Shown in pieces: positions 20,944-39,010 of a stretch of 64,000 nucleotides of DNA. Under the pieces are notes generated by a model, which made no database searches, was not told the DNA's origin, and saw only the letters and a program-made list of their open reading frames with translations. The position numbers and the translations under genes were made by a program. How positions within the stretch are numbered: position 1 is the first letter of the stretch; each line of letters begins with the position of its first letter. This DNA is from Thermoplasmata archaeon (lineage in GTDB: Archaea; Thermoplasmatota; Thermoplasmata; RBG-16-68-12; JAFNFQ01), in assembly GCA_041489255.1 (NCBI GenBank), contig JBGPQV010000003.1, forward strand, positions 32,001 to 96,000. The letters run 5' to 3'.

Positions 20944-21010
20944 CAACGCTCGATATTCTCGGCAATCCTTTTAAGTAGCCCTCGATGGCATCGGGGCTCA
21001 GGAAGATGAG

Positions 21011-21543: not shown

Positions 21544-24012
21544 ATGGGTCTGGAGGCGGGGACCGTGAGGACTGTCGCTGCGTTATTGGTTGGGTGCCTC
21601 TTCGTGAATTCCATTTCCGGCTATGTCATGCAGCAACCGCCGTCGCCTCAGACAGTGACGCTGCCATGCACGTTCGAGGTCGCCCAGGGCGGGTCGAACC
21701 ATGCAGTAGAGCCCGTCGAGCGGGCGCAGACAGTCAGCTCATTCTACAACTACTTCAGCGACAGCGCACACACGCCGTTCGCCGAGGCCTACGTGAGCGT
21801 GCTCTATCTCTATCTTGACACCGGAAGCAGCAGGTTGTACTTCGTGTTCCACTTCAATGTCGACGGAAGCGGAACGCCTGATGCACTGACGGATGTTGAG
21901 CTGCAGGGAATCCCGGCAGGAGCTTCAGTGGCGGTCTCCGACGACCCCGGGGAGTTCAACCTCGCGCGCAATCCCCAGGGCCAGTTCCATTACTTCACCA
22001 ACACTGACGGCGGCGCCCTTGGACCGCTGCCGACGAGCAGCGAGTGGACCATGAAGGTGGACCTGACCCACTATGGCCCGGACCCGGCGCGCTACCAGCG
22101 CTGGGTCGATAGCGACGGTACTCACATCCCGCTTTCGATGACGGGGCAGGTCACGATCGGGAGCGCATGCAACAAGCCGCCTGTGGCGAACGGCAGCGGG
22201 CCGTACATCGGCACCGAGGGGTCTCCGATCCTGTTCAACGCGAGCGGTTCCTATGACCCCGACGGAGACGCGCTCACCTACGCATGGGACTTCGAAAACG
22301 ATGGCACCACGGACATCACGACGATGAACGCCACGGTCAGCCACACATATCCTGATGACTTCAAAGGGAAAGCGAGGCTCACAGTCTCCGATGGGAAACT
22401 GCAGAATTCTACGACGGTCGACGTGGGCGTGAAGAATGTCTCTCCGTCAATAACCTTCGACTCAGTCACGGATTCTCCAGAGGGCGGTGTGATCACGCTG
22501 CAGTTCAGCATCACCGACCCAGGAGCAGATCCGGTGAATGTCACGGTGGACTGGGGAGACGGCCTCCCGCCAGAATTCATCGGCCCATGGTTCAACCCGA
22601 GCGGACAGACGGTGACCGCCACGTGGACTTACGGAGATGACGGCAGCTTCCCGCTCGAGATCACCGCAACCGACGACGATGGCGGGGTCGGGATGCTGGA
22701 AGGCAAGTTCGCGATAGTGCAGAACCTCCCGCCGACAATCATCGCACTTTCATTCCCAGCCACCGCAGACGAGGGGTCGCTCGTCGACATGACCGCAACC
22801 GGACAGGATCCGGGGAGCGATGACCTCCGTTTCACCGTGGACTTCGGAAACGGCGAGGTGGAGTCGAGGGTTTTCTACAATGACGGGGCCCGCCCTGACC
22901 CGCCGCTGAGCCCGCTCGGGACGTTCCCGTTCGCAGCCACGTCCACATTCACGGCATTCTACCCGCAGGACGGGGACTATGCCGGGGAGTTGACGGTGCA
23001 GGATGACGATGGCGGTAGTCTCGTGGTCACCTTCTACATCAACATTCAGAATGTTCCTCCGACGATTATCCCCTTCGGACCGGTCTATGTCGACGAGGGA
23101 TCACCCGGCAGCATGACCGCCACCGCAACAGACCCGGGCAACGACACGCTCGCATTCCATTGGGAGTTCGAACTCGGGCCCACCCTGGACGAGACATTCC
23201 CCGCAACCGGATCGCCAATGAGCGCCACCAGCACCGCCGCCTTCCTGTACGGGGATGACGGCAACTATTCCGTCCTCCTCACTGTGACAGATGAGAACGG
23301 CGCCTCTGCGGTGTATGAGACAGCGGTCATCGTCAGGAATGTCGCACCGACCACGCGGATCGTCCAGGTCAACCGTCCAGGAACGTTCACGCTGCGCGTT
23401 GCGGGAGAGAAGTGGCACGATGTCGAAGGCATCTTCTTCATCAACGACACTGTGCTCGGCGACCTGCGCATCGTCAGGATGCCGGGCTCCCCCGATGATC
23501 AGGCGATGTCAACGAACGTGACGGACCTGTTCCTATCGGCCAACTATTCCGCGAGGATCGTGTACACACCAGAAGACGACCCGATCAACGGGCAGCCTAA
23601 TGGCGCGAACCCCGTGTGGATCATGGTCGGGTCTCCAGGTGAGGAGCCGATCAGAATACACCACACGTTCAATGTCAACCACCCCGGGACCTACGTATGG
23701 GAGGTGGACCTCACGCCGTATGTGGCGAGATTGGCGGTTCAGTTCAAGGCGGTGGCGGTAGACCCGGGCAGCGACGACCTGACGTTCGAGTGGGACTTTG
23801 GGGACAACAGCACGATCCAGAACTCAACGGCGTTCAACGATGATGTCGGGCCGGACCCGCCAGAGAGCCCGGGCGGTACCTTCCCGTTCACCGCTGCGAG
23901 CGAGGTCAGCCATGCTTTCGCGAGCCCTGGAACCTATGTAGTCAGGCTGACCGTTCATGACGATGATGGCGGGAGCTCGACCACCAGTATGACCATCGCG
24001 ATCCTTGGCTGA
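21544..24012 (+). CDS. Secreted PKD-domain protein
   Basis: Signal peptide; repeated WDF/DWGDG/DFG...Y.DDG.Y...LTV.DDDGG and DPGSDDL motifs. Confidence 0.9.
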   Translation: MGLEAGTVRTVAALLVGCLFVNSISGYVMQQPPSPQTVTLPCTFEVAQGGSNHAVEPVERAQTVSSFYNYFSDSAHTPFAEAYVSVLYLYLDTGSSRLYFVFHFNVDGSGTPDALTDVELQGIPAGASVAVSDDPGEFNLARNPQGQFHYFTNTDGGALGPLPTSSEWTMKVDLTHYGPDPARYQRWVDSDGTHIPLSMTGQVTIGSACNKPPVANGSGPYIGTEGSPILFNASGSYDPDGDALTYAWDFENDGTTDITTMNATVSHTYPDDFKGKARLTVSDGKLQNSTTVDVGVKNVSPSITFDSVTDSPEGGVITLQFSITDPGADPVNVTVDWGDGLPPEFIGPWFNPSGQTVTATWTYGDDGSFPLEITATDDDGGVGMLEGKFAIVQNLPPTIIALSFPATADEGSLVDMTATGQDPGSDDLRFTVDFGNGEVESRVFYNDGARPDPPLSPLGTFPFAATSTFTAFYPQDGDYAGELTVQDDDGGSLVVTFYINIQNVPPTIIPFGPVYVDEGSPGSMTATATDPGNDTLAFHWEFELGPTLDETFPATGSPMSATSTAAFLYGDDGNYSVLLTVTDENGASAVYETAVIVRNVAPTTRIVQVNRPGTFTLRVAGEKWHDVEGIFFINDTVLGDLRIVRMPGSPDDQAMSTNVTDLFLSANYSARIVYTPEDDPINGQPNGANPVWIMVGSPGEEPIRIHHTFNVNHPGTYVWEVDLTPYVARLAVQFKAVAVDPGSDDLTFEWDFGDNSTIQNSTAFNDDVGPDPPESPGGTFPFTAASEVSHAFASPGTYVVRLTVHDDDGGSSTTSMTIAILG

Positions 24013-24573: not shown

Positions 24574-25119
24574 TCACAACTGCACGAAGAGGCAATTATA
24601 GACCGTCGGAGGTCCGGGCTCCCCCGGTGCATTGCCTTTCATGCCAGGCACTCTTAGGGAGAGTATCGACCATGGCAGCACCTCGATGCCTTCGTTCTCG
24701 AGTTGTCTCAGTATGCAGTCCTCCAGATGTTTCAGTCTGTCGGGCACGATCTCGGGGTCCTGCCACCCTCTTTCCCCCAGCACACCCCAGTGGAACCTCG
24801 CAAGCGGCCGCGCCTTGCTGATGTGTATGAAGGCTTCGTAATCGCCCATCCTTATCTGGCCCGGCTTCGTGCGAGGGTCCCTCGAAACAGGTTTCAGTCT
24901 CGACTCCGAGGTCCTTATCCAGTGGCATATGTCGTAGTTCCCATCTAGCCAATAATACGCGTTTACGCCGCATTCGTCTCTGATGCGTTGGCAAAGTCTC
25001 TCCACCTTGGCACAATCTCTCATCGTGAATTCGAACTTGGGGTCCATCTTGTCGAAATCCATCGATGGATACATCTCTCTTGTCAGACGGATTATCTTGT
25101 CCGGAATCACGCTCTCCAT
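24574..25119 (-). CDS. Putative immunity protein, paralogue 3 (181 aa)
   Basis: 26 differences out of 181 versus 26242-26787 by my count; preceded by an orphan toxin tip. Confidence 0.8.
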   Translation of the reverse strand: MESVIPDKIIRLTREMYPSMDFDKMDPKFEFTMRDCAKVERLCQRIRDECGVNAYYWLDGNYDICHWIRTSESRLKPVSRDPRTKPGQIRMGDYEAFIHISKARPLARFHWGVLGERGWQDPEIVPDRLKHLEDCILRQLENEGIEVLPWSILSLRVPGMKGNAPGEPGPPTVYNCLFVQL

Positions 25120-25135
25120 TCAAATCATCTCATGG

Positions 25136-25318
25136 TTATTTCTGCTGTCGCCAATCGTTCACTGCTTTAATCCAGGCCCATACATTCTCATCTTTCACGG
25201 GGAAGAATGAAATTATCGAACCATCCGAAGCCCTTACAACAATTTTCATCTCGTCGATGTCACGCATCCCTGGTCTATACGTGTATGTTCGTCTGACTGA
25301 ATCTTGGCTTGCCAGAAT
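25136..25318 (-). pseudogene. Orphan toxin C-terminal fragment
   Basis: Startless frame ...TYTYRPGMRDIDEMKIVVRASDGSIISFFPVKDENVWAWIKAVNDWRQQK* matches the end of the 2867-aa protein (IYTYKPHMYGIDEVTIVVRASDGSIISFFPVQGENVWAWIKALNDWRQQI*). Confidence 0.85.
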
Positions 25319-25374
25319 CTAACAGGAAATCGATATCCTGTAGAGACCCGTCTTTCTGGCCCTCACATGACCAT

Positions 25375-25920
25375 TCAAATCCAGGAGAAGAGGCATTCGA
25401 ACACTCTTGGCGGCTCTGGATTGTCGAACACCCGACCTCCCATGCCTGGCACTGGGCGGAGCAAGATATCCCTCGGAATGACCTCGATGCCCTCCGATCG
25501 TAGTTGGCTCAGTATGCACGTTTCAAGGGATTTCAGCTTTGCTGGCGGTTCGGGGAGTATCTCCCAGTGAAGCTTCCCTAGAACTTGCCAGGTCATTGCT
25601 GCCAGCGGGGCCGCCCTGCTGATATTCATCTGAACCTCGATGTCTCCAGTCCTATAATCCTCATGGCGAGCTTTGGGGTGCCCCGACACAGGCTTCTCCC
25701 TCGAGGTTGAGAGCCGTATCCAGTGACAGATGTCGTAGTTGCCGTCTAGCCAGTAATGGACGTTGACTTGACATTCCGATTCCAGGCGTCTGCAAAGCCT
25801 TTGCACCCTCGCAGGGTCGTCCTTTGAGCGCGCAAGGCGGGAATCCCTTTCGTTCACGTTCATGGTTGGATAAATTTCTCTTATCAAACGCATCAGGTCA
25901 TCTGGGATTGCTGTTTCCAT
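25375..25920 (-). CDS. Putative immunity protein, paralogue 2 (181 aa, more diverged)
   Basis: METAIPDDLMRLIREIYP...YWLDGNYDICHWIR...EGIEV...CLF shared with the other two copies; ATG 25920 gives the same length. Confidence 0.8.
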   Translation of the reverse strand: METAIPDDLMRLIREIYPTMNVNERDSRLARSKDDPARVQRLCRRLESECQVNVHYWLDGNYDICHWIRLSTSREKPVSGHPKARHEDYRTGDIEVQMNISRAAPLAAMTWQVLGKLHWEILPEPPAKLKSLETCILSQLRSEGIEVIPRDILLRPVPGMGGRVFDNPEPPRVFECLFSWI

Positions 25921-25936
25921 CTCTGTCACCGTTTCG

Positions 25937-26101
25937 TCAAAACTGTTGAACCCATCTTGAGGGGCTTGGGTCTTGTGCCAAGAAATCCATCCTTGACCTA
26001 GTTCCGTGGCGGGAGGCAGCATCGCGCTGCAGCTGGAGGTACACCGTCTTCCTCCTTCCATCCCTTTCAAACTCCCCGAATATCGAACGGCCGATGTTCA
26101 T
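25937..26101 (-). pseudogene. Possible diverged orphan toxin tip
   Basis: Ends RWVQQF* exactly 16 nt before the paralogue-2 ATG, mirroring DWRQQI*/DWRQQK* plus 16 nt in the other two cassettes; upstream part not alignable by eye. Confidence 0.4.
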
Positions 26102-26241
26102 TTGACCGCACGGATGGAATGCGCTTGGGGCATTTAAGCCATCATTTGGAAAGCAGTCAAATCTTTGCGCCCAATCTCTCTTCCATCGATTGGATGCGGT
26201 ATCGGAGTCGGGCGTACTCGCCGCAGCCGCTCGGCTGCAAT

Positions 26242-26787
26242 TCATATCGACGAGAAGAGGCAATTATAGACAGTCGGAGGTCCCGGTTGCCCAGGTGCAT
26301 TACCTTTCATACTAGGTACTCTTAGGAAGAGAATCGACAATGGCAGCACCTCGATGCCTTCATTCCTGAGTTGATTCAGAATGCAGTCGTCCAGCTGTTT
26401 CAGTCTGTCGGGCACATTCTCGGGGTGCTGCCACCCTCTTTCCCCGAGCACACCCCAGTCGAACCTCGCAAGGGGCCGGGCCTTGCTGATGAATATGAAA
26501 GCCTCGTAACTGCCCATCGTCTTCTCTTCCGGCTTCGTGCGAGGGTCCCTCGAAACGGGTTTCAGTCTCGACTCCGAGGTTCGTATCCAGTGGCATATAT
26601 CGTAGTTCCCGTCTAGCCAATAGTACACGTTCACGCCGCATTCTTCTCTAATGCGTTGGCATAGTCTCTCCACCTTGGCGCTGTCTCTCATCGTGAACTC
26701 GAACTTGGGGTCCATCTTGTCGAAGTCCATCGATGGATACATCTCCCTTATCAGACGCATTATCTTGTCCGGAATCACGCTCTGCAT
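26242..26787 (-). CDS. Putative cognate immunity protein, paralogue 1 (181 aa)
   Basis: Starts 16 nt after the stop of the giant protein; soluble; triplicated. Confidence 0.8.
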   Translation of the reverse strand: MQSVIPDKIMRLIREMYPSMDFDKMDPKFEFTMRDSAKVERLCQRIREECGVNVYYWLDGNYDICHWIRTSESRLKPVSRDPRTKPEEKTMGSYEAFIFISKARPLARFDWGVLGERGWQHPENVPDRLKQLDDCILNQLRNEGIEVLPLSILFLRVPSMKGNAPGQPGPPTVYNCLFSSI

Positions 26788-26803
26788 TCAGATCATCTCA
26801 TGA

Positions 26804-29800
26804 TTATATCTGCTGTCGCCAGTCGTTCAATGCTTTAATCCAGGCCCATACATTCTCACCTTGCACAGGGAAGAATGAGATTATCGAACCATCTGAAGCC
26901 CTAACGACGATGGTTACCTCATCAATACCATACATGTGAGGCTTATAGGTGTAGATAAGATTGCCTGAATTGGTATCGAGCTTGATGTCTCCCAACGGGG
27001 TATTTCTTAGACCGTCCCTGAGCAACTCCCAGACTTGTGCGTCGGTCATTGCCGGAGGGAGCGTCTTTTCGATTGGATATCCAGTGATGGTCTTGCCCGT
27101 CGGGAAGAAGGATGTAATATCCTTATCCAAGCTGACTATGCTGCCTTCAATGTGGCGGCCAATGACATGGAACTGACCAAACCGCCCGTCTCCCATTTTG
27201 AGGACCGCGATGCCGTCGGGCAATCCGCTGGCCTTCCATGCTTTCAACACTTCATCAGCGCCAGCACCTTCGTCGAGCGGGTTAGCACCGTTCTTCCTAA
27301 CCCACGCTCCGAACCTTTCGAGGGCCCCAGGTTCGAGTTCGATTACATCTTTTGTCACAGACCTCCAGACACCCTCTCGAATAGCTCTATCCGGAAAGGC
27401 GGCTTCGAAACCGATTACTTCAGCCTCTGGAAGTCTCAACAACGCCTTTGTCCTTCCGCGAAGGATGTCGTCTGATATGCCGAGGACATCCGCACTCCAC
27501 TTGGTCATCAGCACCAAGCCCGCCAGCCCGATTCCGTTCGCGAACATCTCCTCGAAGAAGCCTCCGAACAGCTCTGCAAGTGCGTAGCTGCCAGCGAAGA
27601 TGGCACCCGCAAGGGCGAGTTTCACTGTGCATCGGCCGAAGTATTCATAAGCCCTAGCTGCGAAACTGATGATTCTTTGGAGGGGACCGAGCTTGGAAAG
27701 TGCTTGAGTAATCATTGCCCCAATGTTTCCAGCTTCGAGGGCTCCTTTGACAGCGGCTCCCGCACCCGCCGTCACAATCATTCCGATTATATTTCCGATC
27801 CAATACCAGTAATTGAATGTCTCGTGATCATTGCTCATGTCCCAGGGATCGTTGTCGCCGTCGGGAACCGGGTCGTAGGGATTGGCGTTTTCTGCTTGTT
27901 GAACTAAAGCGTCGTAGAGAGACCCAAGAGCGTTTCGCAATGTATCACCGGGATTCCCGCTATTGAGCAGGTCATGCCCGAACGATGCGCCAGAATCGAA
28001 CAGCGAACCTGCATTTTTCATAATGGACGGTATGCTCGTGAACATCCCCGAGAAACAATCCCACAAGCCGACTGCCATCCCTCCAACCTCTGGACCAAGA
28101 TACTTGACCGTCAGGTCTTTCAGAAGGTCCCGAGCTCTGTCAAAATATGTGTCTTGCTTGAGCCAGTAATGGTTTGCATTGCCGTTGACGTCCACCACAT
28201 AGAAATCGACGGTCTTGCCCGTGAATGCATCCAAGAAGCCGATGCTGAAGTCCTTATTGCGAGTGTCGAAGATATTCGCATAGAGATCGTCGTTGGAATA
28301 CTCCTTTCCATCAACGACAGTTATTAAGGACCCTAGCCCCACGTTGTCGGACATGACGATGGTGACGTGGACACACTTCAGCCCTTCCCAGCAAAGTGAG
28401 GTGGACCAAGACAAATCAATGTAAGGAACGACCAATTCCACTACGCTGGGTTCGTCATCTATGTCATCTTTCATCCTATCTCCATCGCTGTCCTGCTTTC
28501 TTGGGTCAACTTTCTGTAAGAACTCCATCAGATCATTTAGCCCGTCTCCGTCCGTGTCTTTCTTGTCCGGATCGGAAGTCACGTGGTAGCGAGTAAAGAG
28601 TGGCCTTATGGCCTCCGACACCATGTTCTGGGCGTGGACTGGAAGGGATGTATCGTCGAGTATGCGGGTCATCTCGTAGACGTTCGCGACGGAGGTGAGC
28701 ATGACCGTGTCCCATCCTAGGATCTCTATTCCGTCGAGCAGAAGGTCCCCGTCGCAATCAGGATTCAGCGGGTTAGTCACCCATCCATAAACACCAGTGA
28801 CTTCTTCGCCATCTTTGAGTCCGTCGCCATCCGTGTCGGGTTCCAACGGATTCGTCCCGTATCCACCGCCAGGATTCGGCTCCCCCAGGTAGCCCACCTC
28901 ACCTAACTCTTCACCAGAATCCCAGACTTGGTTGCGCAAGGTGTCGTGCCAGCCATCCCAGAGTCCGTCCCCATCCGTATCAGAGAGCACGGGACTTGTG
29001 CGGTAGTTCCGTTCCCCCATCAGCTCGCCAGAATCCCATATTTGATTGGGAGTCCCCTGATTGTCATTCCAGCCGTCCCAGAGTCCGTCCCCATCAGAGT
29101 CTGGATCGCATGCGTTTATGAGGCTATCACCATCAGTGTCAACCCACCAGTCTATTTCCGAACCATCTAAGATTCCATCTCCGTCACTGTCAGGATTTGT
29201 TGAGGAAAGGCACGAGTAGGCAGGTAAGCCCTCGATTCCGTCGCTCAGTCCATCGGAATCGGAATCCAGCAGATCTTCCGGCGTGTAATCTCTGCCGCCT
29301 AGAATCACGAGAATCGATTCGAGCAATAGATCGCCCTTGGTGCTCGAGTGGAACCGAATCGGTATGAATTGATAACCGTCCACATCCGGGTAGCTCGCCA
29401 GCAATGCGTTGATAGCGTCGGTATCCAAAAGCACAATCAGGTGGTCAGTCCATGGAAATGGGATGCCTGCATCAGGGCTGACATATCCCTCTTGCTTCCA
29501 CTCAGGATTGTCATCCCCCTCTGATGTCACGATATTGATGGAGACATCATGCGGATAATCTACGCAAAACATCTGATATACCAAAGAGCCCGAATCGGTA
29601 GTCCAATCAATCGATTCGAAGAAATTAACATCGTAGAGCAAAGCATGGTTTGCCCAAATTCGCGCGTCGTCGCTCGCGGCCCAATAGAATTCCCCGTTGA
29701 ACATCCTTAGTATCATCCAGTATGTGGTTTCCGCTTCTAGCAGTACTGGGGAATCGAATCGAAACTCAAGCCAACCGTAGAGGGCGCCGGATACTTCGAC

Positions 29801-32800
29801 TGAAGAAACGGCATAATCGCTTGCCAGAGGTCCAATTTCGCCGGTGGAGAGATCCCATGAGGCCGCCTCACCCAAGACGAGGTCGATCCATGCGGTTTCG
29901 CCAGTCGGAATGGCGTAGGCGACTGCGACTTTGACCGTAATTAGAGATTGAGGCCCATCGCTGGAGGAAATGTAGAATGGGACGCCCGCCGCGTATCCGG
30001 CCCATCCGTCATCAGGAACATGCAGCCCCGGGAATGTTGGGTTGGAGTCATGAGAACCTGACCATTTGTGGGGCTGGAATGTCAGGACCACCCGCGGAGC
30101 ATCCCAACCCATCACTGGTTTGACTTGTTCAAGAACCCCTTTCTTGACGGGGACTTTCAGATAGAGCTCGGTGTCTCCGCCGGTGTCTCCGCCAGCATCC
30201 TCAAAGAGCGTCCATGTATACCAATACGTCCCCACCTCCGGAGTTGCGCATTGGCCTGCATCATTGGTGCTACAAAGCCACTTGGGCCATTCCTCATACG
30301 CAGCGGCGCCGAACTCGGTGCCGTCTTTCGCCCCATCTGCATCGAAATCGCGCTGGAAGCTGTCAGCCATGGCGAAATCGCCTAGGGCGCCAGAAAGAGA
30401 CCAGACGTAGTCATACGCGGTATTCCTCCAAGTCTCCTCACCGATGTACTTATGTTTCATCGGAACCCATTCGCCTGCGTCCCCATTCCCATCCCAATGA
30501 TACATCAAGAGTCCATCCTCGCCCACTGGATTCCCTAAGTTGTCGACTGGACCCTCTGGATAACTGATTTTGACCACAGCGCGGTAGCCTTGAGCTGACG
30601 AGGTCTCCACGTGAATCACCTGCCCTACGAGCCCTGCATCAGTGAATGTCTGAGAACCTTCGGTAATGGTGACCGTTGCGCCAGGGTCAGGCATACCAAA
30701 ATCGAGGGCCACACTCACTCCAAGGTCTCTGTTGACTGCAATCACATCAGGCTCGAAGTCGGACGGGAGCAGGATTCCGAGCGTTGGGTTTGCGGCAGCG
30801 TCTGGGTCGATGTCGTATTCTAGGTTGCGAACGTCAAGGCCATCAGGTATCAAGTCGTAATCTGTGTCAGCGTCTGCGGGGTTGGTGTTCTGAAGATATT
30901 CCTGTAGGTTCGTGAGAGTGTCCCCATCCTTATATTCGGAAGAGTCATCATAGGTCGGCAATAGTCCGTATTTCACTTCCCAACCATCCGGCATCCCGTC
31001 AGGCTCTGTGTCCGCCTGTATAGGATTGGTGTCAGTCTGGATTTGCTCCACTGAATCGGTTAGCCCATCATTATCGCTGTCAGGTATGTTCGGATTGGTC
31101 TCAGCGGTTCCCTCCAGCCCCGTCCATGAGCCAGTATCTACGCGGCCGTCGATGTCACGATCTTCGAATTCCCCCTGTTCGATTCCATCGCTGTCAGTGT
31201 CAATCCACCCGTCGGGCAAACCATCTGAATCGCTATCCACATTCAACGGATTCGTTACCGTAGTTGGGTCCTCATCCGGGACGAATCCTGATGGTGCTCC
31301 CAAGGTCTGCGAGTCCCCGTCATTCTGCCAATCCGCAAGAGAATCGTAGCCTTGAGGCCAAGGGAGCCCTGCTTCCTGTCCGTCTGTCAGGTGATCACCA
31401 TCTGTGTCGCGCATACTTGGATTCGTTTCGATGTTGTCGACACAACCATCGCGGTCTACATCCTCAGTGCCGTCCCATAAACCGTCGTCATCTGTATCTC
31501 TATCCAGAGGATTCGTGGTTGTGCTTGAATCGGAATCTCTCTTGGGGATGCCAAATATGTCTCTGTCCAGTGTGTCGCCAACCTCCGGCAACCCAAGCTC
31601 AAGTCCATCAGGAAGCCCGTCACCATCCGTATCCGCAATCGAAGGGTCGGTTTCCTCTGCATCGATGTTGCCGTCAAGGTTCTTGTCCTCGCTCTCCCAT
31701 CTGTCAATCAGTCCATTCCCTTCCGTTCCCTGGGGATTCGTTGCGGGATCGTAGTCATCATGGTCAGGGTCAGGATTGCCGATCAGGTCATATCCGGGTT
31801 CCTGCCAGCTGAAAAGACAGCCTGACGCCCCCAAGCCACAATCCACCCATCCATCTGGCAGCCCATCCTTGTCTGTGTCTATGCTTGTGGGATTAGTCGT
31901 CACGGAGTCTGGGACATCATATCCTGGTACACCGGTCTCCACTCCATCCCCCAATCCATCATCGTCCGTGTCGGCATCCAGAGGATTCGTTAGATAGGTA
32001 TCACTACCTCGAACGGCTTCCTCGCCGTCCTTCACGCCGTCATCGTCTGAGTCATCATCCAGGGGGTTCGTTTCGCCTGGACCATCTCCATCATTCCATA
32101 CGCCCGCATCTGTTGCGCCATTCAGGTTTCGGTCTTCGAACTCTCCTGAATTCCGCGTCTGATCGTCATTGAAGTCAATCCACCCATCGGGTAGCCCATC
32201 ATTGTCCGTGTCCCAGCGGAGCGGGTCAGTGACCGTGCCTGGGTCCGAGTCGATTCCAAGAAGACCGACCTCCAGTCCGTCGGGCAATCCATCCCCGTCT
32301 GTATCTGCTTGAGATGGATTCGTCTCTCCTGGCCCAGAACCGGGGCCGCTTCCGGCATCCCATGCCCCGGTATCCACCACACCGTCGAGGTCACGATCCT
32401 CGTATTCACCGACATCGCGCAGGCCATTGCTGTTTAGGTCAAACCAGCCATCGGGAAGTCCGTCTCCATCCGTGTCTATAATAGTCGGGTTCGTGGTCGT
32501 TAATGGATCGGAGTCAGGGCCATAACTAACGCCATCGACAATGCCGTAACCCCACGGAGGGGATAGCGTGTCTGAGGCGCGCATCGGGGAGTCGTCGGTG
32601 AGCCCCACCTCCAACCCATCCGAGAGATGGTCGCCGTCCATGTCTGGATTGAGCGGATCTGTGATGAATGTATCCTCGCCTGCGAATAGTTCTTCCCAGT
32701 CTGTCAAGCCGTCGTTGTCGGTATCATCGCTCGTCGGATTGGTTCCATATAGTTCGACTTCGGCATAATCGAGCAGCAGGTCCCCGTCGGTATCGGGATT

Positions 32801-35407
32801 GTTCTTATTCAAACCATTCGCGTCCTCCCATTCGTCCCTCAGTTGGTCACCGTCTGAGTCCAGTTCGATAACGACTATGGCAGTGTCATCGCCAAAGGAC
32901 CCAGAAGCGTCCGTTGCCGTGAGAGAGACCGTGTATGTCCCAGATACTGTGAATGTATGAACGGTATTCGGCATCATTTCGTGAGGGCTGCCGTCGCCGA
33001 AGTCCCAGACGAAAGTGAGCGGTTCACCATCATCATCTTCCGCCTCAGCAGAGAATATTATGGGCGCAGCGGCGCCATGGATTCTCCGATCAGGACCTGC
33101 GAACGCAGTTGGCGGAGTGTTCGCGACTCTAATAAGGTGAGTATCATAGGACACAAGCCCGTGCTTGTCCGTCACACGGAGGGTAGCCGAGTACTCGCCC
33201 CGAGAAGAATACCGATGCATTGTGCGCGAGCCCGAGCCCGTCGAAGAGTCGCCGAAGAACCAAAGATAGGAGAGGTCGGACAAGTCGTCCTGGCCGTCGG
33301 AGGAATGGATGCCGCTGAGTACCGATGCATGCGTCTCTGCTCCTAGGGAGAGGACCTCAAAGGCGGCATTCGGAGCAACGTTAGAGACCGTAACGCTATG
33401 GGTCTTGGTGCTCATGACCCCGTTGTCGTCAGTGACTGTTAGAATCACGCCATAGCTTCCTTCCCGCCTGTAGGAATGGGTAGGCGAGACGCCTGAGGCC
33501 TTAGCTCCGTCTCCGAACTGCCAATAGTAGTCCAGAGCCGTGCGATCTGAAGCTGTGTCGGTCGAAAGGGAACCGTCATAGTACACCATCGTGTCCTCAT
33601 CTACTTGGGAGGGTGTGAATGCGAAGTCAGCGTTCGGCGCCCCATTCGTCACACTGACACGTCTGCTGTTAGCGCCCCAGTCCCCCTTCCCGTCTGTGAC
33701 CTTCAGCACTACGGTGTACGTTCCGGCGCGCAAGTACGCATGAGTGGTCGAGGCGGTGCTCGTGGTGGCCGTCACGCCGTCGCCAAGATCCCAAAAGAAA
33801 GATGGAGCCGGCGAGGAGGGCCCGTCGCTGTCCGCGTATATGCCCGTGAAGGTGAATGTCTGGTCCTCGGCTTTTGTCGCCGCGTTCACGTTGACGGCCG
33901 TAATCTCGGGAGCCTTGTTGTCCAGCACCCCGCCCTTGAACGTGCACGTGGCAGTGTTCGTGCCCCCATCCCCATCGTCGGCCTTCAGGGTGACGGTGTA
34001 TGTCGTCTTGGAGGAGGGGAATTTATGCGTCACGTTCCACCACACACGGTAGGGGGAAACGTGGCTTGGGTTTGCGAACGTCTGGACAGCGTCAGCGCTC
34101 CCGTCCCCGAAGTGCCACGTTAAGGTGAGGGCGTCGGCGCCGACCTCATGGGCAATCCCTTTGAGGACGGACGATGTCGCCCCGACGATTGATGCGTACG
34201 GCGCGCGGTTCTGCACGGTGACGGTCACGCTGGAAGTGGTAGAAGCCGAATGAGGATCGGTGACCGCGAGGTTCACCGTCGCGGATGTCTCATCGTACCA
34301 TACATACGTTGGCCTGCTCCCTGTCATCGATGCACTACCACTCCACGAATAAGCCAAGGCGTCGGCATCGCTCGACGTATCGGTGGACGCGGTGGCATCG
34401 AAGAGCACTGTCTGTGCTTCCGAAACGGTGATTGAATTGCCTGCTGTTGCCGTCGGCGCTCCGTTGGCGACGTTCACCACATGCTGCGTGGTTGACGTGG
34501 CGTCGTTGTCGTCGCGGACGGTAAGCAGAACAGCGAAGTTGCCCGGAGATGAATACGCATGGGTGATGGTCCTACCTTGGCCATACTGCCCGTCTCCGAA
34601 ATCCCATGCGAATGTCAGCGGGTGCCTAGTGATGGCGTTGCCCGGCAAGGCGTTGTCAGTTGCGGTGTCTGTTGAACCCGAGGCGTCGAACGTCACTACA
34701 GCATCCATGTATGGACTCGTAGGAGAATAGACGAAAGAGGCAGACGGATTGGCATTCACAATGACCACGTTCCGAGTCGCCGTGTCGGCGTTCCCGGCTG
34801 CGTCTCGCACGATCAGGTGCACGCGATAGGTTCCTGCGTATCCATAGGAATGCGTCTCAATGCCTGCAGTGCTCGTTGCCCCGTCACCAAAATCCCATTC
34901 GTATCGGAGATCCTCTCGCGGGTATGTGGCCGGCCACGAGGTCGTGGCATCAAACTGAATGCTCTCGTCCTCCGCCACGCTTGCGGTGTCAGCCGGAGTC
35001 GTGAGGATGACTGCCCCGGGAACTCCCCCTGATCCGTAGCTCGGACTCTTGATGTGGATGCGGATTGTGTCCAGAGCCATCGTCCCAGTCGACTCTTCGG
35101 CAACCAAAGCCACGTCGTAAATCCCGTCCGTTGTGAACGAGTGTACAGGTGAAGGATCCGTCGAAGAGGTGCCGTCTCCGAAAAACCATGTGAAAGATAA
35201 GGCATTTCCGGGTTGCCCGGGGCTTGACCCACTTGAGTCAAACTCGATGTCTTCTCCCGGATCTGCCGGGTCTGACTCTTCGGTTCCGTCGAGCGCATCC
35301 GCCACGGCGACAGGCGGCGGATAGCTCGCCTTGACAAGAGTTGTGGCGCCTGAGATCACGGTTATAAAGGCCAAAGCCAAAGCCATTAGACTTCTCATCC
35401 CGATCAT
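26804..35407 (-). CDS. 2867-aa secreted polymorphic-toxin-like protein (PKD domains, DxDxDG Ca-binding repeats, hydrophobic helices, C-terminal putative RNase toxin)
   Basis: GAGGAGG RBS then ATG 35407 and signal peptide; about nine PKD domains (WxFGDG); many NP...DTDxDGLxDGxE TSP3-like repeats; Gly/Ala-rich hydrophobic helices; tip with GQFHVIGRH...SFFP...IISFFP. Confidence 0.85.
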   Translation of the reverse strand: MIGMRSLMALALAFITVISGATTLVKASYPPPVAVADALDGTEESDPADPGEDIEFDSSGSSPGQPGNALSFTWFFGDGTSSTDPSPVHSFTTDGIYDVALVAEESTGTMALDTIRIHIKSPSYGSGGVPGAVILTTPADTASVAEDESIQFDATTSWPATYPREDLRYEWDFGDGATSTAGIETHSYGYAGTYRVHLIVRDAAGNADTATRNVVIVNANPSASFVYSPTSPYMDAVVTFDASGSTDTATDNALPGNAITRHPLTFAWDFGDGQYGQGRTITHAYSSPGNFAVLLTVRDDNDATSTTQHVVNVANGAPTATAGNSITVSEAQTVLFDATASTDTSSDADALAYSWSGSASMTGSRPTYVWYDETSATVNLAVTDPHSASTTSSVTVTVQNRAPYASIVGATSSVLKGIAHEVGADALTLTWHFGDGSADAVQTFANPSHVSPYRVWWNVTHKFPSSKTTYTVTLKADDGDGGTNTATCTFKGGVLDNKAPEITAVNVNAATKAEDQTFTFTGIYADSDGPSSPAPSFFWDLGDGVTATTSTASTTHAYLRAGTYTVVLKVTDGKGDWGANSRRVSVTNGAPNADFAFTPSQVDEDTMVYYDGSLSTDTASDRTALDYYWQFGDGAKASGVSPTHSYRREGSYGVILTVTDDNGVMSTKTHSVTVSNVAPNAAFEVLSLGAETHASVLSGIHSSDGQDDLSDLSYLWFFGDSSTGSGSRTMHRYSSRGEYSATLRVTDKHGLVSYDTHLIRVANTPPTAFAGPDRRIHGAAAPIIFSAEAEDDDGEPLTFVWDFGDGSPHEMMPNTVHTFTVSGTYTVSLTATDASGSFGDDTAIVVIELDSDGDQLRDEWEDANGLNKNNPDTDGDLLLDYAEVELYGTNPTSDDTDNDGLTDWEELFAGEDTFITDPLNPDMDGDHLSDGLEVGLTDDSPMRASDTLSPPWGYGIVDGVSYGPDSDPLTTTNPTIIDTDGDGLPDGWFDLNSNGLRDVGEYEDRDLDGVVDTGAWDAGSGPGSGPGETNPSQADTDGDGLPDGLEVGLLGIDSDPGTVTDPLRWDTDNDGLPDGWIDFNDDQTRNSGEFEDRNLNGATDAGVWNDGDGPGETNPLDDDSDDDGVKDGEEAVRGSDTYLTNPLDADTDDDGLGDGVETGVPGYDVPDSVTTNPTSIDTDKDGLPDGWVDCGLGASGCLFSWQEPGYDLIGNPDPDHDDYDPATNPQGTEGNGLIDRWESEDKNLDGNIDAEETDPSIADTDGDGLPDGLELGLPEVGDTLDRDIFGIPKRDSDSSTTTNPLDRDTDDDGLWDGTEDVDRDGCVDNIETNPSMRDTDGDHLTDGQEAGLPWPQGYDSLADWQNDGDSQTLGAPSGFVPDEDPTTVTNPLNVDSDSDGLPDGWIDTDSDGIEQGEFEDRDIDGRVDTGSWTGLEGTAETNPNIPDSDNDGLTDSVEQIQTDTNPIQADTEPDGMPDGWEVKYGLLPTYDDSSEYKDGDTLTNLQEYLQNTNPADADTDYDLIPDGLDVRNLEYDIDPDAAANPTLGILLPSDFEPDVIAVNRDLGVSVALDFGMPDPGATVTITEGSQTFTDAGLVGQVIHVETSSAQGYRAVVKISYPEGPVDNLGNPVGEDGLLMYHWDGNGDAGEWVPMKHKYIGEETWRNTAYDYVWSLSGALGDFAMADSFQRDFDADGAKDGTEFGAAAYEEWPKWLCSTNDAGQCATPEVGTYWYTWTLFEDAGGDTGGDTELYLKVPVKKGVLEQVKPVMGWDAPRVVLTFQPHKWSGSHDSNPTFPGLHVPDDGWAGYAAGVPFYISSSDGPQSLITVKVAVAYAIPTGETAWIDLVLGEAASWDLSTGEIGPLASDYAVSSVEVSGALYGWLEFRFDSPVLLEAETTYWMILRMFNGEFYWAASDDARIWANHALLYDVNFFESIDWTTDSGSLVYQMFCVDYPHDVSINIVTSEGDDNPEWKQEGYVSPDAGIPFPWTDHLIVLLDTDAINALLASYPDVDGYQFIPIRFHSSTKGDLLLESILVILGGRDYTPEDLLDSDSDGLSDGIEGLPAYSCLSSTNPDSDGDGILDGSEIDWWVDTDGDSLINACDPDSDGDGLWDGWNDNQGTPNQIWDSGELMGERNYRTSPVLSDTDGDGLWDGWHDTLRNQVWDSGEELGEVGYLGEPNPGGGYGTNPLEPDTDGDGLKDGEEVTGVYGWVTNPLNPDCDGDLLLDGIEILGWDTVMLTSVANVYEMTRILDDTSLPVHAQNMVSEAIRPLFTRYHVTSDPDKKDTDGDGLNDLMEFLQKVDPRKQDSDGDRMKDDIDDEPSVVELVVPYIDLSWSTSLCWEGLKCVHVTIVMSDNVGLGSLITVVDGKEYSNDDLYANIFDTRNKDFSIGFLDAFTGKTVDFYVVDVNGNANHYWLKQDTYFDRARDLLKDLTVKYLGPEVGGMAVGLWDCFSGMFTSIPSIMKNAGSLFDSGASFGHDLLNSGNPGDTLRNALGSLYDALVQQAENANPYDPVPDGDNDPWDMSNDHETFNYWYWIGNIIGMIVTAGAGAAVKGALEAGNIGAMITQALSKLGPLQRIISFAARAYEYFGRCTVKLALAGAIFAGSYALAELFGGFFEEMFANGIGLAGLVLMTKWSADVLGISDDILRGRTKALLRLPEAEVIGFEAAFPDRAIREGVWRSVTKDVIELEPGALERFGAWVRKNGANPLDEGAGADEVLKAWKASGLPDGIAVLKMGDGRFGQFHVIGRHIEGSIVSLDKDITSFFPTGKTITGYPIEKTLPPAMTDAQVWELLRDGLRNTPLGDIKLDTNSGNLIYTYKPHMYGIDEVTIVVRASDGSIISFFPVQGENVWAWIKALNDWRQQI

Positions 35408-35500
35408 CAATGTATCCTCCTCACGTCCCAACAATCCGCTCAATCCAATTGAATGGGACGCACGGGGATAACCATCTAGCCTTAAATGTTTAGTCTCCCG

Positions 35501-36548
35501 AACTGTGTTGAACAAATCCCGTCTTTTTCTCCCTCCGACCTCCCGACCTCCCGCCATCAGGGCATCTGCAGGAGCATCGCGTAGACAGCGAACTTCGCCA
35601 TGACCTCCCTGTACATCAGGTCGAGCCTCCTCGCCATCACGTTCTCCCCGAATATCCTCTTCTCGCCGGAGAAGGTCCACTCAGCCGCCCACCTCATCCC
35701 ATACCCGTGTTTCTCCCTCCAGCCATCGTACCCGAGGGACCTGAGCTCCCTCACCGCCCTCGGCCTGGCCGATGAGCCCAACGATTTGCAGGTCGCACCA
35801 GCCTTGATCCTGATCCCCGCCCCGATTCCTTTGTCCTCCAGGAGCTGGAAGTTCGCGCGGCTGTCGTAGGCGGCGTCGGCGAGGACCTCCCGTATGCGCC
35901 CCTTCCCCAGGGCCCTCTCCGCCTTCTCCAGCAGGGCGGGGAACATCGTCGTGTCGCCTATCCCCTCGTCGGTAGCTTTCATCGCCACGGGCCCTCCGTC
36001 AACGTCCACCGCCAGGTGCACCTTTATCCAGCCCCGGTGGCGGTGCCACTTCTCCCTCATCCACTCCCCCCTGTTCGTGACCTTGATTCCCGTGCTGTCG
36101 AAGGCGATCACGAACGGCCCGTCACCCTGAGGCGCGGGAATCTCAAGCTCCATGTCGGCTATCCGCCACCAGAGGGTCGTGTAGTCGGCAGGCCTGACCT
36201 TCCCCACGAACTTCGACATGCCGCAGAGGAAGCCCTCCATCTGCCTGTACTGCATCCTGAGGATCTGCCTGACGGCGGCGAGGAATCGCATCATGCTCTC
36301 GGGGAAGCCGTATGGACGCCCCCTCTTCCCGCCGTTCATCGTCCTCAGTTCGTCTTCCCACGAGTCCAGCCAGTCCATGCTGAGGTACAGCTCCCCCCGC
36401 CGGACGAGCCGCTCGTTGTACCCGGGCCAATTCCTCTTATCCTTGTAGTGCCTTTCACCCTCGCTCGGCATGGGTCCCATCCCTGCTGACAAGGCAGGTT
36501 CTCATGCCGAGTTCCCACCATCAAACCATCGATTTATTCAACACAGTT
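35501..36548 (-). mobile_element. IS5-family (IS903-like) insertion sequence, 1048 bp
   Basis: 18-bp TIRs AACTGTGTTGAACAAATC (35501-35518) and AACTGTGTTGAATAAATC (revcomp of 36531-36548); 8-bp TSD GTCTCCCG at 35493-35500 and 36549-36556. Confidence 0.95.
35557..36480 (-). CDS. IS5-family DDE transposase
   Basis: RNWPGYNERLVRRGEL, DYTTL, DSTGIK..RGEW, W.KVHLAVD, ADAAYDS, Y..RW.AE..FS..KR motifs. Confidence 0.95.
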   Translation of the reverse strand: MGPMPSEGERHYKDKRNWPGYNERLVRRGELYLSMDWLDSWEDELRTMNGGKRGRPYGFPESMMRFLAAVRQILRMQYRQMEGFLCGMSKFVGKVRPADYTTLWWRIADMELEIPAPQGDGPFVIAFDSTGIKVTNRGEWMREKWHRHRGWIKVHLAVDVDGGPVAMKATDEGIGDTTMFPALLEKAERALGKGRIREVLADAAYDSRANFQLLEDKGIGAGIRIKAGATCKSLGSSARPRAVRELRSLGYDGWREKHGYGMRWAAEWTFSGEKRIFGENVMARRLDLMYREVMAKFAVYAMLLQMP

Positions 36549-37316: not shown

Positions 37317-38258
37317 CACCGCAGATCCCCTGGGCAGCTTGAATATCTTCCTTGGCAGCGGGCTCGTCTCGTGCACGCGGAAGCTGCCGAGGTTCGCCTC
37401 GAAGCTCTTGACGCCGTCGAGCGAGGTGCTCCCGCCGCCGAGGCTGTTCCACAGTAGGAACACCACATCGTCCAGTATCTCGTTCTTCACGGCGGTGCGC
37501 AGCTCCTCCGCGTTCCCGCCGCGGACGAAGACTATCGGCTCCAGGATCATCTCCAGCTCTATCATGGCGGTTGAGCCGGTCTTCGTGATGACCAGGGAGT
37601 TCGATTCCGCCCCGCCCTGGAGCGCGGGCACCTCGATCGTGTTCGTGTCCTTCTTGACCCTGAGGCCATCGCCCCGCAGGTCCCTCTCGACGAGCGCGAG
37701 CATCTCCTGCTCCAGGTAGCCGGGCACGAAGTCGACTCTGGGCAGGGTCGTCTCCCGCCTCAGGCTGAAAGCGAGCGGGCAGCGGTAGGACTTCATCTCC
37801 TCCTTGTAGGATATCGATTCGACGATCTCCGGCTTCACCGGTTGCGCGCCGTCCCTGAGCACGAAGAACTCCGTGTCCGTCCCGTCCGTCACCACGCTCA
37901 GGTAGTTCTCGTGGCGGGAGGCTCTGGACTTGAGGGTGCTGTCGTCAGTCGCGCTGTGGAACACCGCGTGATCTGTCTCGTCCCTGAAGGGATGGCTGTG
38001 GAAGATGCCGACGATGCCCACGTTCCTGGGGTACTGCATCGCCAGCTCGACCTCCTCCCTCGCGTCCGCATGCGCGCCGTATCTGCTCTGCGACTTGTAC
38101 CTGGTGCAGGGGACCGAGTCGCAGACCCAGACCTCGCTCCTCCCGAAGAAGCCGAGGAGCCAGCCGATCGTCTCGACGCCTCTCGACCGCGCGACCTCGT
38201 TCACGTGGATGTTGATCTTTCGCAGCGCGCTCCGCTGCATGCGCACGCTGACCGTCAC
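37299..38258 (-). CDS. JAMM/MPN+ metalloprotease with C-terminal domain (putative de-UFMylase), 319 aa
   Basis: GTG start overlaps the E1 stop (GTGA); E29 in ETIGWLLG, H87-S-H89 in VGIFHSHP, S102-x2-D105. Confidence 0.85.
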   Translation of the reverse strand: MTVSVRMQRSALRKINIHVNEVARSRGVETIGWLLGFFGRSEVWVCDSVPCTRYKSQSRYGAHADAREEVELAMQYPRNVGIVGIFHSHPFRDETDHAVFHSATDDSTLKSRASRHENYLSVVTDGTDTEFFVLRDGAQPVKPEIVESISYKEEMKSYRCPLAFSLRRETTLPRVDFVPGYLEQEMLALVERDLRGDGLRVKKDTNTIEVPALQGGAESNSLVITKTGSTAMIELEMILEPIVFVRGGNAEELRTAVKNEILDDVVFLLWNSLGGGSTSLDGVKSFEANLGSFRVHETSPLPRKIFKLPRGSAVLVREG

Positions 38259-39010
38259 TTCGCACCACCGCAGACCGGGCACTTGGGGTCCCGCTTCCAG
38301 TTGTACCTCTGCATCTTCCCCTCCAGGCCATAATAGAGGATGTAAGGCGCGACTTTGCCGAAGCCAAGGAGGTACTTCAGCGCTTCCTGACACTGCAGGC
38401 TCGCGATGATGCCCATGGTTGTGGGAAGCGAAGTGAAGTGGCATGCGCCGTCTCCGGATTTCTTCAGGTCCGTTGTGCTGTCATCCTTCAAGGCGGGTTT
38501 GTTGCAGCGGTAACAGGGCGTCTTGCCGGGGATGATCGAATGCACGGAGCCGTTGATTCCGTCAAGGGAGGCTCCGCCGTCGATGAGGGGGACCTTCAGC
38601 CTCACGCACAGGGAATTAAGGAACAAGCGGACGTGGAACGAGTCGACGCATCCGAGGACGAGGTCGGACTCCCTCGCCTCCTTCAGGAGGGCGTCGTAAC
38701 CCTTGCCGTCGGTGACGTCGTTGGGATAGGTGAGAAGCTCAACGTCGGAGTTCGCCGCGAGGAGGTACTCCCTGAGCGCGTCCACCTTGAACATGCCTAC
38801 CTGGTGAGTCCTGTAGATCAGCCTGTTCAGGTTCGCTTCCTCGAGCTTGTCGAAGTCGAATATCGTCAGGCGCCCGATGCCGCAGCGCGTCATGATCTCC
38901 GCGCAGGTCGCGCCGAGGCCGCCGACGCCGACGACGGTCACCTTCTTCTCCTTCAGCTTCGAGAAGTCCGCGAACGGGAAGATCTTGAGGCGGGCGTATC
39001 GCTCAGTCAA
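38255..39010 (-). CDS. UBA5: UBA5-like E1 activating enzyme (ThiF family), 251 aa
   Basis: VGVGGLG, AEIMTRCGIGRL.IFDFDKLE.ANLNRL, DLVLGCVDSF, IIPGKTPCYRC, catalytic GAC190HFTSLPTTMG, LKYLLGFG.V, CPVC; these track remembered human UBA5 blocks (AEMLTRCGIGKL, ANMNRL, GVCAASLPTTMG, LKFLLNFG). Confidence 0.88.
   Translation of the reverse strand: MTERYARLKIFPFADFSKLKEKKVTVVGVGGLGATCAEIMTRCGIGRLTIFDFDKLEEANLNRLIYRTHQVGMFKVDALREYLLAANSDVELLTYPNDVTDGKGYDALLKEARESDLVLGCVDSFHVRLFLNSLCVRLKVPLIDGGASLDGINGSVHSIIPGKTPCYRCNKPALKDDSTTDLKKSGDGACHFTSLPTTMGIIASLQCQEALKYLLGFGKVAPYILYYGLEGKMQRYNWKRDPKCPVCGGAK

Follow-up and report, generated by a model that had tools for sequence, protein, structure and literature searches.

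A predicted exported polymorphic toxin locus with an RNase-like tip and a series of candidate immunity genes in a Thermoplasmata-like archaeon

The locus described here lies in a window of 64,000 nucleotides (nt), which is the whole stretch of DNA that was analysed (contig JBGPQV010000003.1 of assembly GCA_041489255.1, positions 32,001 to 96,000). It comprises a minus-strand gene for a protein of 2867 amino acids (aa), which combines a signal-peptide-like start, a long stalk of repeats, a conserved pre-toxin module (the handle) and a small C-terminal domain, called the tip in the following, and three genes for 181-aa proteins of a single family that follow it on the same strand. We consider it quite probable that in these genes a Thermoplasmata-like archaeon has a polymorphic toxin system exported by Sec, with an RNase tip, a cytoplasmic immunity protein and orphan immunity genes. 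The coordinates of the features are displayed in Table 1.

The large protein is encoded by an open reading frame (ORF) that spans 26804-35680; from the ATG at 35407 it gives 2867 aa, with the N-terminus MIGMRSLMALALAFITVISGA, and nowhere is the protein more hydrophobic than in its first 29 residues (Kyte-Doolittle value, KD, 2.17). Concerning the stalk, a Pfam scan found PKD_4 in nine stretches (E 2.7e-113) and PKD in eight, and a count with a regular expression gave 24 D-x-D-x-D-[GH] sites in two blocks (aa 895-1443 and 2048-2284); 22 of these sites are strict DxDxDG. The TSP3_bac match is sub-threshold (19.6 bits for a cut-off of 25, best stretch aa 2191-2204), and so is a CglD-like NCBIfam match at aa 961-1256. 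Three Gly/Ala-rich hydrophobic segments of moderate KD (1.4-1.5) were located at aa 2535-2558, 2593-2618 and 2626-2644, and the protein ends with GQFHVIGRH...TSFFPTGK...SFFPVQG...WRQQI followed by the stop codon. The last 531 aa have no Pfam match at E<=10 and no NCBIfam match at E<=1. A preliminary description of this DNA, made from the letters alone, had reported the signal-peptide protein, about nine PKD domains, the hydrophobic Gly/Ala helices and the GQFHVIGRH...SFFP terminus, all of which are borne out by the translation and the Pfam scan; the dozens of DxDxDG repeats that it announced are present too, and come to about two dozen.

The three 181-aa ORFs located 3' of this gene are intact and, in order, 100, 51 and 87% identical to paralogue 1 (whole-genome search). 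As that description had it, each of them starts 16 nt after a stop codon that ends a W.QQx peptide: the stops lie at 26804-26806, 25937-25939 and 25136-25138, and the peptides ahead of paralogues 1, 2 and 3 end in WRQQI, WVQQF and WRQQK. The ratios of nonsynonymous to synonymous substitution (dN/dS) are 0.25 between paralogues 1 and 3 and 0.20 between paralogues 2 and 3, which indicates that purifying selection acts on the paralogues.

The modular build of the large protein became visible when its last 546 aa were searched against 1.84 billion representative proteins (E<=0.001). Five of the 41 matches cover only the pre-toxin part (query positions ~1-373) and run on into other C-terminal sequence, three cover both parts, and 33 cover only the tip (~370-545). 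The tip-bearing proteins are 110 to 2553 aa long, and the tip match ends 20 residues or less from the C-terminus in 33 of 36 (the other three have 40-51 residues more). Their N-terminal parts are diverse according to Pfam: seven have TSP3, two have CARDB/carboxypeptidase-regulatory/MG2 domains, and one, a Haloarcula protein, has VWA plus dockerin; most of them have no recognisable domain.

The pre-toxin module has about 380 aa and consists of a beta-rich part, the LGPExGG and ANPY motifs and the three Gly/Ala-rich hydrophobic helices. In its alignment 27 positions are invariant, among them LGPxxGG, ANP and the beginning of the first hydrophobic helix, and the similarity is gone soon past the last helix. 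No Pfam or NCBIfam family corresponds to it. A search of 401 genomes of the phylum with the pre-toxin profile added one full-length case, in the genome G418 (E 2.3e-34). When the 11 ends that follow the module were compared all against all by BLASTP, at least four classes without mutual similarity appeared. The class with the H-x3-RH motif has six ends, those of the window, of G021 (a genome from another family of the same order), of the metagenome locus L019 and of the proteins P0012, P0011 and P0041; a second class has three (an orphan ORF of G021, P0007 and P0009); the tips of G418 and P0005 form a class each. As far as sequence comparison can demonstrate it, tips are exchangeable on a shared conserved handle, and the pre-toxin module is proposed as the recombination handle for this exchange. 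The search for a shared stalk or handle with different tips, already suggested in the preliminary description, has thus yielded 11 proteins or loci with clear C-terminal variation. The grouping of all tips without the RH motif into one PD-(D/E)xK class was tried and dropped, as the G418 and G021-orphan tips are not similar and Pfam offered no more than sub-threshold hints (SfsA, E 0.016; Mrr_cat, E 0.056).

The gene downstream changes with the tip and not with the stalk. G021 encodes a 2009-aa homologue with six PKD stretches and the same tip. Identity to the window protein is 33% in the PKD part and 29% in the last 725 residues, and the stop of this gene overlaps with the beginning of a gene for a 197-aa homologue of the 181-aa protein. 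In L019 the distance is 9 nt between the stop codon for a TSP3/pre-toxin/H-x3-RH protein and the start of a homologue of 192 aa. The 181-aa family therefore lies directly behind the H-x3-RH tip in 3 of 3 independent Thermoplasmatota loci (window, G021 and L019), and different genes lie downstream of the other tips on the same handle and of a haloarchaeal-type member of the tip family. The different tip of G418, for instance, is followed by a 193-aa gene unrelated to the 181-aa family (hhalign probability 0.5%).

Two of these relatives show further features of their own. In the locus L020 (246-833) an acidic ORF of ~170-195 aa, by eye unrelated to the 181-aa family, comes after the haloarchaeal-type tip-family member and probably represents a second immunity family for this tip family. 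In the locus L039 (G418:C1, 3824-4945 and 5334-10625, minus strand) a 373-aa ORF lies 3' of the G418 toxin and its putative immunity gene; its final ~100 residues are nearly identical to the N-terminal region of the G418 large toxin, so that it looks like a partial duplicate of the toxin 5' part beside its 3' end.

Orphan cassettes were found both in the window and in G021. Cassette 3 of the window (24586-25243) is an 89%-identical copy of 26254-26911, 658 bp that take in the toxin's last ~36 codons, the 16-nt spacer and the immunity gene, and is recognisable from this as a true duplicate, a displaced toxin end with its immunity gene. The orphans of the window keep 54 tip codons at most and are therefore in effect orphan immunity genes. 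In G021, behind the 197-aa gene, lies an ORF of 248 aa in which the final ~50 handle residues recur (...VNRLRGIGPLNSRIF...PEIFGEWFANYLGG) ahead of a different tip; next comes a 355-aa gene of no known family, different from the 181-aa family. This pair is a textbook orphan cassette in the terms set out by Zhang et al. 2012 (PMC3482391).

The definition of polymorphic toxin systems given by Zhang et al. 2012 rests, besides a toxic tip that its cognate immunity protein neutralises, on an exported protein, a variable C-terminus, a co-varying downstream gene and orphan cassettes. Here, the large protein has a hydrophobic N-terminus, nine PKD stretches and 24 DxDxD[GH] repeats; the 11 proteins that share the module carry at least four tip classes; the downstream gene co-varies with the tip in the three loci just described; and there is one orphan cassette in the window (cassette 3) and a full, handle-bearing one in G021. 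The layout has a modular build, tips swapped on a handle, the displaced end of a toxin, and a downstream gene that tracks the tip; all three paralogues are under selection. The exchange of tips and the downstream gene tied to the tip support the reading as a polymorphic toxin that the preliminary description had put forward.

Regarding the tip itself, the alignment of 23 members has seven invariant positions (H48, R52, H53, P70, G72, P148 and G151 in the numbering of the segment), of which H48, R52 and H53 correspond to H2747, R2751 and H2752 of the protein; G56, T66, F69 and G128 are nearly invariant. The hallmark motifs of the family are H-x3-R-H, FFPxG and YPxxG. A Ser or Thr precedes the invariant P148 in the same alignment (T/S-A/F-Y/F-P). 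The AlphaFold 2 (AF2) model built on alignment A2 (predicted local distance difference test, pLDDT, 83.8; predicted template modelling score, pTM, 0.77) places helices at 45-54 and 90-103, followed by strands over 109-166, with the H-x3-RH motif on a helix and a beta-meander that closes in the S/T-x-F/Y-P strand. The BECR (barnase/EndoU/colicin/RelE) fold has an N-terminal helix ahead of a four-stranded antiparallel meander. For RNases of this fold, Zhang et al. 2012 (PMC3482391) describe catalytic His and Arg residues near the first helix and a Ser or Thr on the final core strand. The tip has this arrangement of residues: its conserved His and Arg lie on the first helix and its Ser/Thr is placed on the last strand, and they are candidates for a catalytic role.

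Structural searches with the tip model pointed in the same direction. The top Foldseek matches were the C-terminal toxin domain (CdiA-CT) of Serratia marcescens BWH57 (7m5f_C; E 0.049, probability 0.84), CdiA-CT of NC101 and colicin D. A Foldseek-independent search of 48,161 chains with the exhaustive aligner VIA also put 7m5f_C first (Z 7.2 over 97 residues, root-mean-square deviation, rmsd, 6.3, 13% identity), and below it came RelE, the YxiD tRNase, BrnT, PrpT, further tRNases from systems of contact-dependent growth inhibition (CDI), ParE proteins and colicin D. Judged by the titles of the entries, CDI, colicin D or RelE/ParE/BrnT-type toxins filled 14 of the 16 top rows, and a second look agreed. 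The depositors of 7M5F regard H47, E51, H52 and R89 as the likely active site of that BECR toxin (PMC8616854), and in a comparison made by spacing the H-x3-R-H of the tip repeats the H-x3-x-H helix spacing of 7M5F. One Haloarcula member of the tip family carries the name 'Bacterial EndoU nuclease domain-containing protein' in UniRef; a Haloarcula japonica 'calcium-binding protein' is another example of the haloarchaeal relatives. With moderate confidence, based on the model, the tip is taken as a divergent, metal-independent RNase of the BECR fold, probably near bacterial EndoU, with a probable active site formed by H2747, R2751 and H2752 on the first helix and the Ser/Thr on the last strand.

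For the 181-aa protein, Pfam and NCBIfam have no match, the ESM Atlas offered unnamed clusters only, and sequence and profile searches of the PDB yielded nothing meaningful. Its sequence shows neither a signal peptide nor a hydrophobic segment. The model is an alpha/beta domain (pLDDT 85.6, pTM 0.83), for which the best Foldseek match is Crl (E 0.016) and the best VIA matches are generic alpha/beta domains (Z 6.5), with a SuFu homologue at rank 38 (Z 4.5); neither program assigns a known immunity fold. The family could not be assigned in the preliminary description either, and this judgement stands. A prediction of the complex between the tip (residues 30-168 of A2) and the 181-aa protein scored 0.01 (mark 0.32) and speaks neither way. 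Concerning its distribution, a word-indexed search of 5.8 billion clusters led back to the three copies of the window and to nothing else (3 of 33 candidates), and the family is present in 2 of 61 genomes, the window's own and G021; a scan of genome contigs with the immunity alignment returned one locus, on the contig of G021, and L019 came from a metagenome scan with a 5-row alignment. A search of 401 genomes of the class with the tip profile found the own genome only.

Among known systems, the closest layout is that of the Sec-dependent ('T2SS class', type II secretion system) polymorphic toxins of Zhang et al. 2012 (PMC3482391), as their account describes them, with which the locus shares the signal peptide, the repeat stalk, the pre-toxin region and the variable C-terminal toxin, as well as the adjacent cytoplasmic immunity gene, the orphan cassettes and the immunity arrays. 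It differs from them in its host, a Thermoplasmata-like archaeon, and in that its pre-toxin module, immunity family and tip subfamily match no Pfam or NCBIfam model. In the CdiA-CT/CdiI pair of S. marcescens BWH57 (7M5F), too, the toxin forms the C-terminal end of a very large surface protein and the immunity gene adjoins it. However, CdiA of BWH57 is delivered by the two-partner CdiB/CdiA route of Gram-negative bacteria, none of whose domains appear in the window protein (Pfam), and no relationship was detected between CdiI (98 aa) and the 181-aa protein. The scan of the whole protein gave only PKD-type, TSP3 and Y_Y_Y families, with no TPS or FHA domain; no RHS/YD family was found by Pfam or NCBIfam, and PF14449 (PT-TG) has no match ahead of the tip (last 531 aa, E<=10). 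Features of the CdiB/CdiA type (TPS, FHA, VENN/PT) are thus absent from the toxin in the Pfam scan, CdiB itself not having been searched for in the genome. Because none of the defining domains was found in the Pfam scan, the locus is, on this analysis, not a member of the CDI or Rhs families, and the CDI/Rhs-type layout claimed in the preliminary description holds as an analogy of layout only.

Arrays of immunity genes are also known elsewhere. In Vibrio cholerae's type VI secretion system (T6SS) they are described as the product of sequential displacement of effector ends (PMC5361080), and the orphan cdiA-CT/cdiI and rhs-CT/immunity modules likewise combine a displaced toxin 3' end with an intact immunity gene, as in cassette 3, or carry the handle, as in G021. 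In contrast with those arrays, the three immunity genes of the window all belong to one family and are not mixed. The VARTIG proteins of Thermococcales (PMC8416519) are also large archaeal surface proteins with Ig domains and a variable C-terminus, followed by variable small genes, but their authors report no recognisable toxin domain in them, in the text of that paper, whereas the window has a nuclease-like tip and a co-varying gene.

Several results weigh against the toxin interpretation or against its RNase part. With the tip model Foldseek gave nothing at E<=0.001, the structural matches are middling (best Z 7.2 at rmsd 6.3), and by the aligner's own caveat a Z of 7-8 is the usual best score for models without a true match. 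At the sequence level, the Pfam family EndoU_bacteria (PF14436) matched 5 of the 23 tip members at E<=1 (best 0.012, below significance); the matches of relatives fall on positions 62-128 of the 129 in the profile, its C-terminal half. P0041 (21.1 bits, E 4.4e-4) and P0011 (16.1 bits) stay under the gathering threshold of 25.3, as does every member tested, and the window's own tip has no Pfam match even at E 10, no NCBIfam match at E 1 and nothing meaningful in sequence and profile searches of the PDB. The likeness of the tip to BECR and EndoU toxins, for which the preliminary description had suggested a Foldseek comparison, finds moderate support in the top structural matches, which are BECR toxins, and none at threshold in EndoU_bacteria. 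The immunity role is suggested by position and co-variation in three loci and a family of five sequences (the three window copies, G021 and L019). The frame upstream of paralogue 2 was tried as a degraded tip and rejected (BLASTP E 0.1, no hit with the tip profile at E<=0.001), so that the orphan tip/immunity cassettes of the preliminary description are confirmed in cassette 3 and not in cassette 2, whose 'W-x-Q-Q-x, stop, 16 nt' junction may be a homologous remnant. Finally, the three helices after a Sec signal could equally be stop-transfer anchors, and an odd number of spans would then leave the tip in the cytoplasm of the producer, unlike a secreted toxin.

These points give some room to other explanations. 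It is unlikely, though worth considering, that the system is a polymorphic toxin whose tip is a DNase, a peptidase or a binding domain, the H-x3-RH motif serving other chemistry. The fold matches of the tip, with Z 5-7 at 5-16% identity, would allow this, no sequence family of known activity reaches threshold for it, and the RelE/ParE-like folds include the ParE gyrase poisons, which are not nucleases and of which several entries are among the matches. However, the two invariant His and the Arg on the first helix with the Ser/Thr on the last strand form the BECR pattern of Zhang et al. 2012 (PMC3482391), and the weak EndoU_bacteria matches recur in five of the 23 members, besides the Haloarcula member labelled EndoU. 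The odd number of moderately hydrophobic segments bears on a second explanation, which we regard as improbable: a membrane-anchored adhesin whose helices hold the C-terminus in the producer membrane, the tip and the 181-aa protein being an internal toxin-antitoxin or signalling pair that would act, for example, in cell death on surface damage or virus attack. A cytoplasmic tip beside a 181-aa protein that lacks export signals would fit this, and the fold class of the tip is common to the toxins of RelE/ParE toxin-antitoxin pairs. On the other hand, the tip ends many proteins without the helical module (33 tip-only matches with varied N-terminal parts); orphan cassettes, displaced 3' ends and orphan immunity arrays mark toxins that are swapped between competing strains, according to PMC3482391; and a fixed internal pair needs no extra immunity paralogues under purifying selection. 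Lastly, large secreted proteins of the PKD, CARDB and beta-helix kinds abound in the window, and the tip and the 181-aa protein are without family annotation, which would suit an ordinary large surface or S-layer-associated protein beside unrelated small genes, its likeness to a toxin locus being coincidental. This reading is very improbable and already disfavoured, since chance does not explain the 181-aa family after the same tip in three lineages, nor the swapping of tips on the handle and the orphan cassette of G021, nor a duplicate whose start falls within the final 54 codons of the toxin.

In the polymorphic toxin reading, which we prefer, the 2867-aa protein would be exported by Sec, and its long stalk of PKD domains and calcium repeats, stiffened by calcium, would display it at or beyond the cell surface. 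The hydrophobic helices would help the tip to cross the membrane of a target, so that the tip could enter a neighbouring cell and cut its RNA, and in the cytoplasm the 181-aa protein would bind and block the tip. RNase activity, immunity by binding and delivery into a neighbour are the steps that we infer. Paralogues 2 and 3 may have been left behind or acquired as tip-plus-immunity cassettes recombined at the pre-toxin handle or at the 3' end of the tip, and they may be kept because they protect against related tips of neighbours.

Table 1. Features of the toxin locus in the window (coordinates 1 to 64,000)
Feature	Position	Strand	Basis
Predicted polymorphic toxin gene, 2867 aa plus stop	26804..35407	-	ORF and translation; Pfam PKD/TSP3; large homologues in G021, L019 and G418
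Signal-peptide-like segment, aa 1-29	35321..35407	-	Top hydrophobic 19-aa windows (KD 2.17); basic n-region; A-x-A-like end
PKD block, ~aa 60-846, boundaries approximate	32870..35230	-	PF18911 PKD_4, E 2.7e-113, 9 stretches
First DxDxDG block (TSP3-like, calcium-type), aa 847-1528	30824..32869	-	Regular-expression matches, aa 895-1443
Non-repetitive middle stalk, aa 1529-2048	29264..30823	-	Without Pfam match
Second DxDxDG block, aa 2049-2321	28445..29263	-	Regular-expression matches, aa 2048-2284
Conserved pre-toxin module (handle), aa 2322-2700	27308..28444	-	Alignments A3 and A8; module-only matches; G418; hydrophobic segments
C-terminal tip, aa 2732-2867, predicted BECR-fold RNase-like (H2747, R2751, H2752, FFPxG, S-F-F-P-x-x-G)	26807..27214	-	Alignment A2; AF2 model; fold matches
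Spacer of 16 nt, toxin stop to immunity start	26788..26803	-	Read off the sequence
Cognate immunity candidate 1, 181 aa	26242..26787	-	Directly 3' of H-x3-RH tip in 3/3 loci; no known family
Spacer before paralogue 2, 321 nt, with a 54-108-codon frame ending WVQQF and the dispersed repeat	25921..26241	-	Sequence; genome repeat search
Orphan immunity paralogue 2 (candidate), 181 aa, 51% identical to paralogue 1	25375..25920	-	dN/dS 0.20 against paralogue 3
Displaced toxin 3' end, last ~54 codons plus stop	25136..25303	-	74% aa identity to the end of the main tip over 54 aa
Orphan immunity paralogue 3 (candidate), 181 aa, 86-87% identical to paralogue 1	24574..25119	-	Within the 658-bp duplicate; dN/dS 0.25 against paralogue 1

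The host genome, that of an uncultured archaeon from sediment, has 2.74 Mb in 41 contigs and is 96.5% complete. Ribosomal protein S8e in the genome and an archaeal small-subunit (SSU) rRNA on the contig of the locus mark the host as an archaeon, and all named relatives of the locus are labelled Thermoplasmata archaeon. The G+C content (GC) falls to 0.49-0.56 across 24-32 kb of the window, with ~0.60 in the flanks, a dip that is counted here as foreign composition and in favour of the toxin reading. Within the order, the sequence search found the pre-toxin module in 2 of 79 genomes, in single copy in the own genome, and the middle stalk (aa 1529-2048) in the own genome only (1 of 79). Because of the low GC, the adjoining insertion sequence (IS) and the rarity of the middle stalk and the pre-toxin module in the order, the toxin locus is regarded as an accessory island. 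The locus also turned up in contigs of four further sediment metagenomes (four studies), where the listed pieces show 0 differences. None of these contigs, which show presence only, had a joint that skips a cassette, and no RNA data set containing the locus was listed among the sequencing runs.

The IS at 35501-36548 of the window has 1048 bp, 18-bp terminal inverted repeats (94% complementary) and a DDE transposase (Pfam DDE_Tnp_1, DDE_Tnp_1_5), and a partial copy, 74% identical, is located on contig C6. It lies on the upstream side of the toxin gene and, since its end sits 94 nt from the toxin start codon, it may supply or disturb the toxin promoter.

The spacer before paralogue 2 contains a dispersed repeat of ~100-140 nt (at ~26003-26191), with four copies in the genome at 84-94% identity. 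Three of them are on contig C13 of the genome (59262-59404, 63764-63857 and 66952-67092), where they are intergenic and adjoin unrelated genes for a DUF559 endonuclease, an AAA/DUF4143 ATPase, and GNAT and Kelch proteins. Variants of the repeat are also present in other sediment metagenomes, as extra contigs at 26039-26159. Examined as an RNA, the repeat had no Rfam match at E<=1 and fold z-scores of -0.61 and +0.78, and it holds no conserved ORF above ~16 codons. On the minus strand it has a TTTAAAT box ~30 nt ahead of an ATG, and for this reason it may be a mobile promoter-like element.

Regarding the rest of the window, many very large secreted proteins are encoded at 11580-24012 and 39779-63991 (CARDB, DUF7948 with SBBP beta-propeller, PKD, BNR, NosD/beta-helix, and Big_7 with glucodextranase-B), and the pre-toxin module was found in none of them. 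At 38255-39473, on the minus strand, a ThiF-family E1-like gene (E 6.5e-52) adjoins a UFC1-like E2 gene (E 5.5e-9), which suggests a ubiquitin-like or UFM1-like conjugation pair in an archaeon.

Polymorphic toxin systems have been predicted in archaea before (Zhang et al., Biol Direct 2012; Makarova et al., mBio 2019, the latter as cited in PMC8416519), and RNase and DNase tips are stated to be the commonest ones in archaeal systems (PMC8416519). According to the text of the same paper, no archaeal polymorphic toxin had been experimentally characterised as of 2021, and among the papers that a full-text search found to pair 'polymorphic toxin' with 'Thermoplasmat' none, judged by titles and the starts of abstracts, deals with such a system. 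New toxin and immunity families are routine in this field, with 24 new families in one example (PMC13483458). The layout described here is thus of a known type, and what is new are three component families without a name in current libraries, namely the tip subfamily, the immunity family and the pre-toxin module.

It is a tentative and rather doubtful, although possible, extension of these results that the pre-toxin module, besides being a recombination handle, is an archaeal device for toxin translocation without prior description: the stalk would meet the neighbour, the helices would enter its single cytoplasmic membrane, and any attached tip would be carried into the cytoplasm. If this were true, the module would be the archaeal counterpart of the translocation regions of CdiA and colicins, for cells with an S-layer and without an outer membrane.

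The locus is a compact and testable archaeal example that has all the parts together, including a small tip with candidate active-site residues. The three graded immunity paralogues (100, 87 and 51% identity) are suited to tests of specificity, and the conserved handle could reveal how toxins cross the archaeal envelope.

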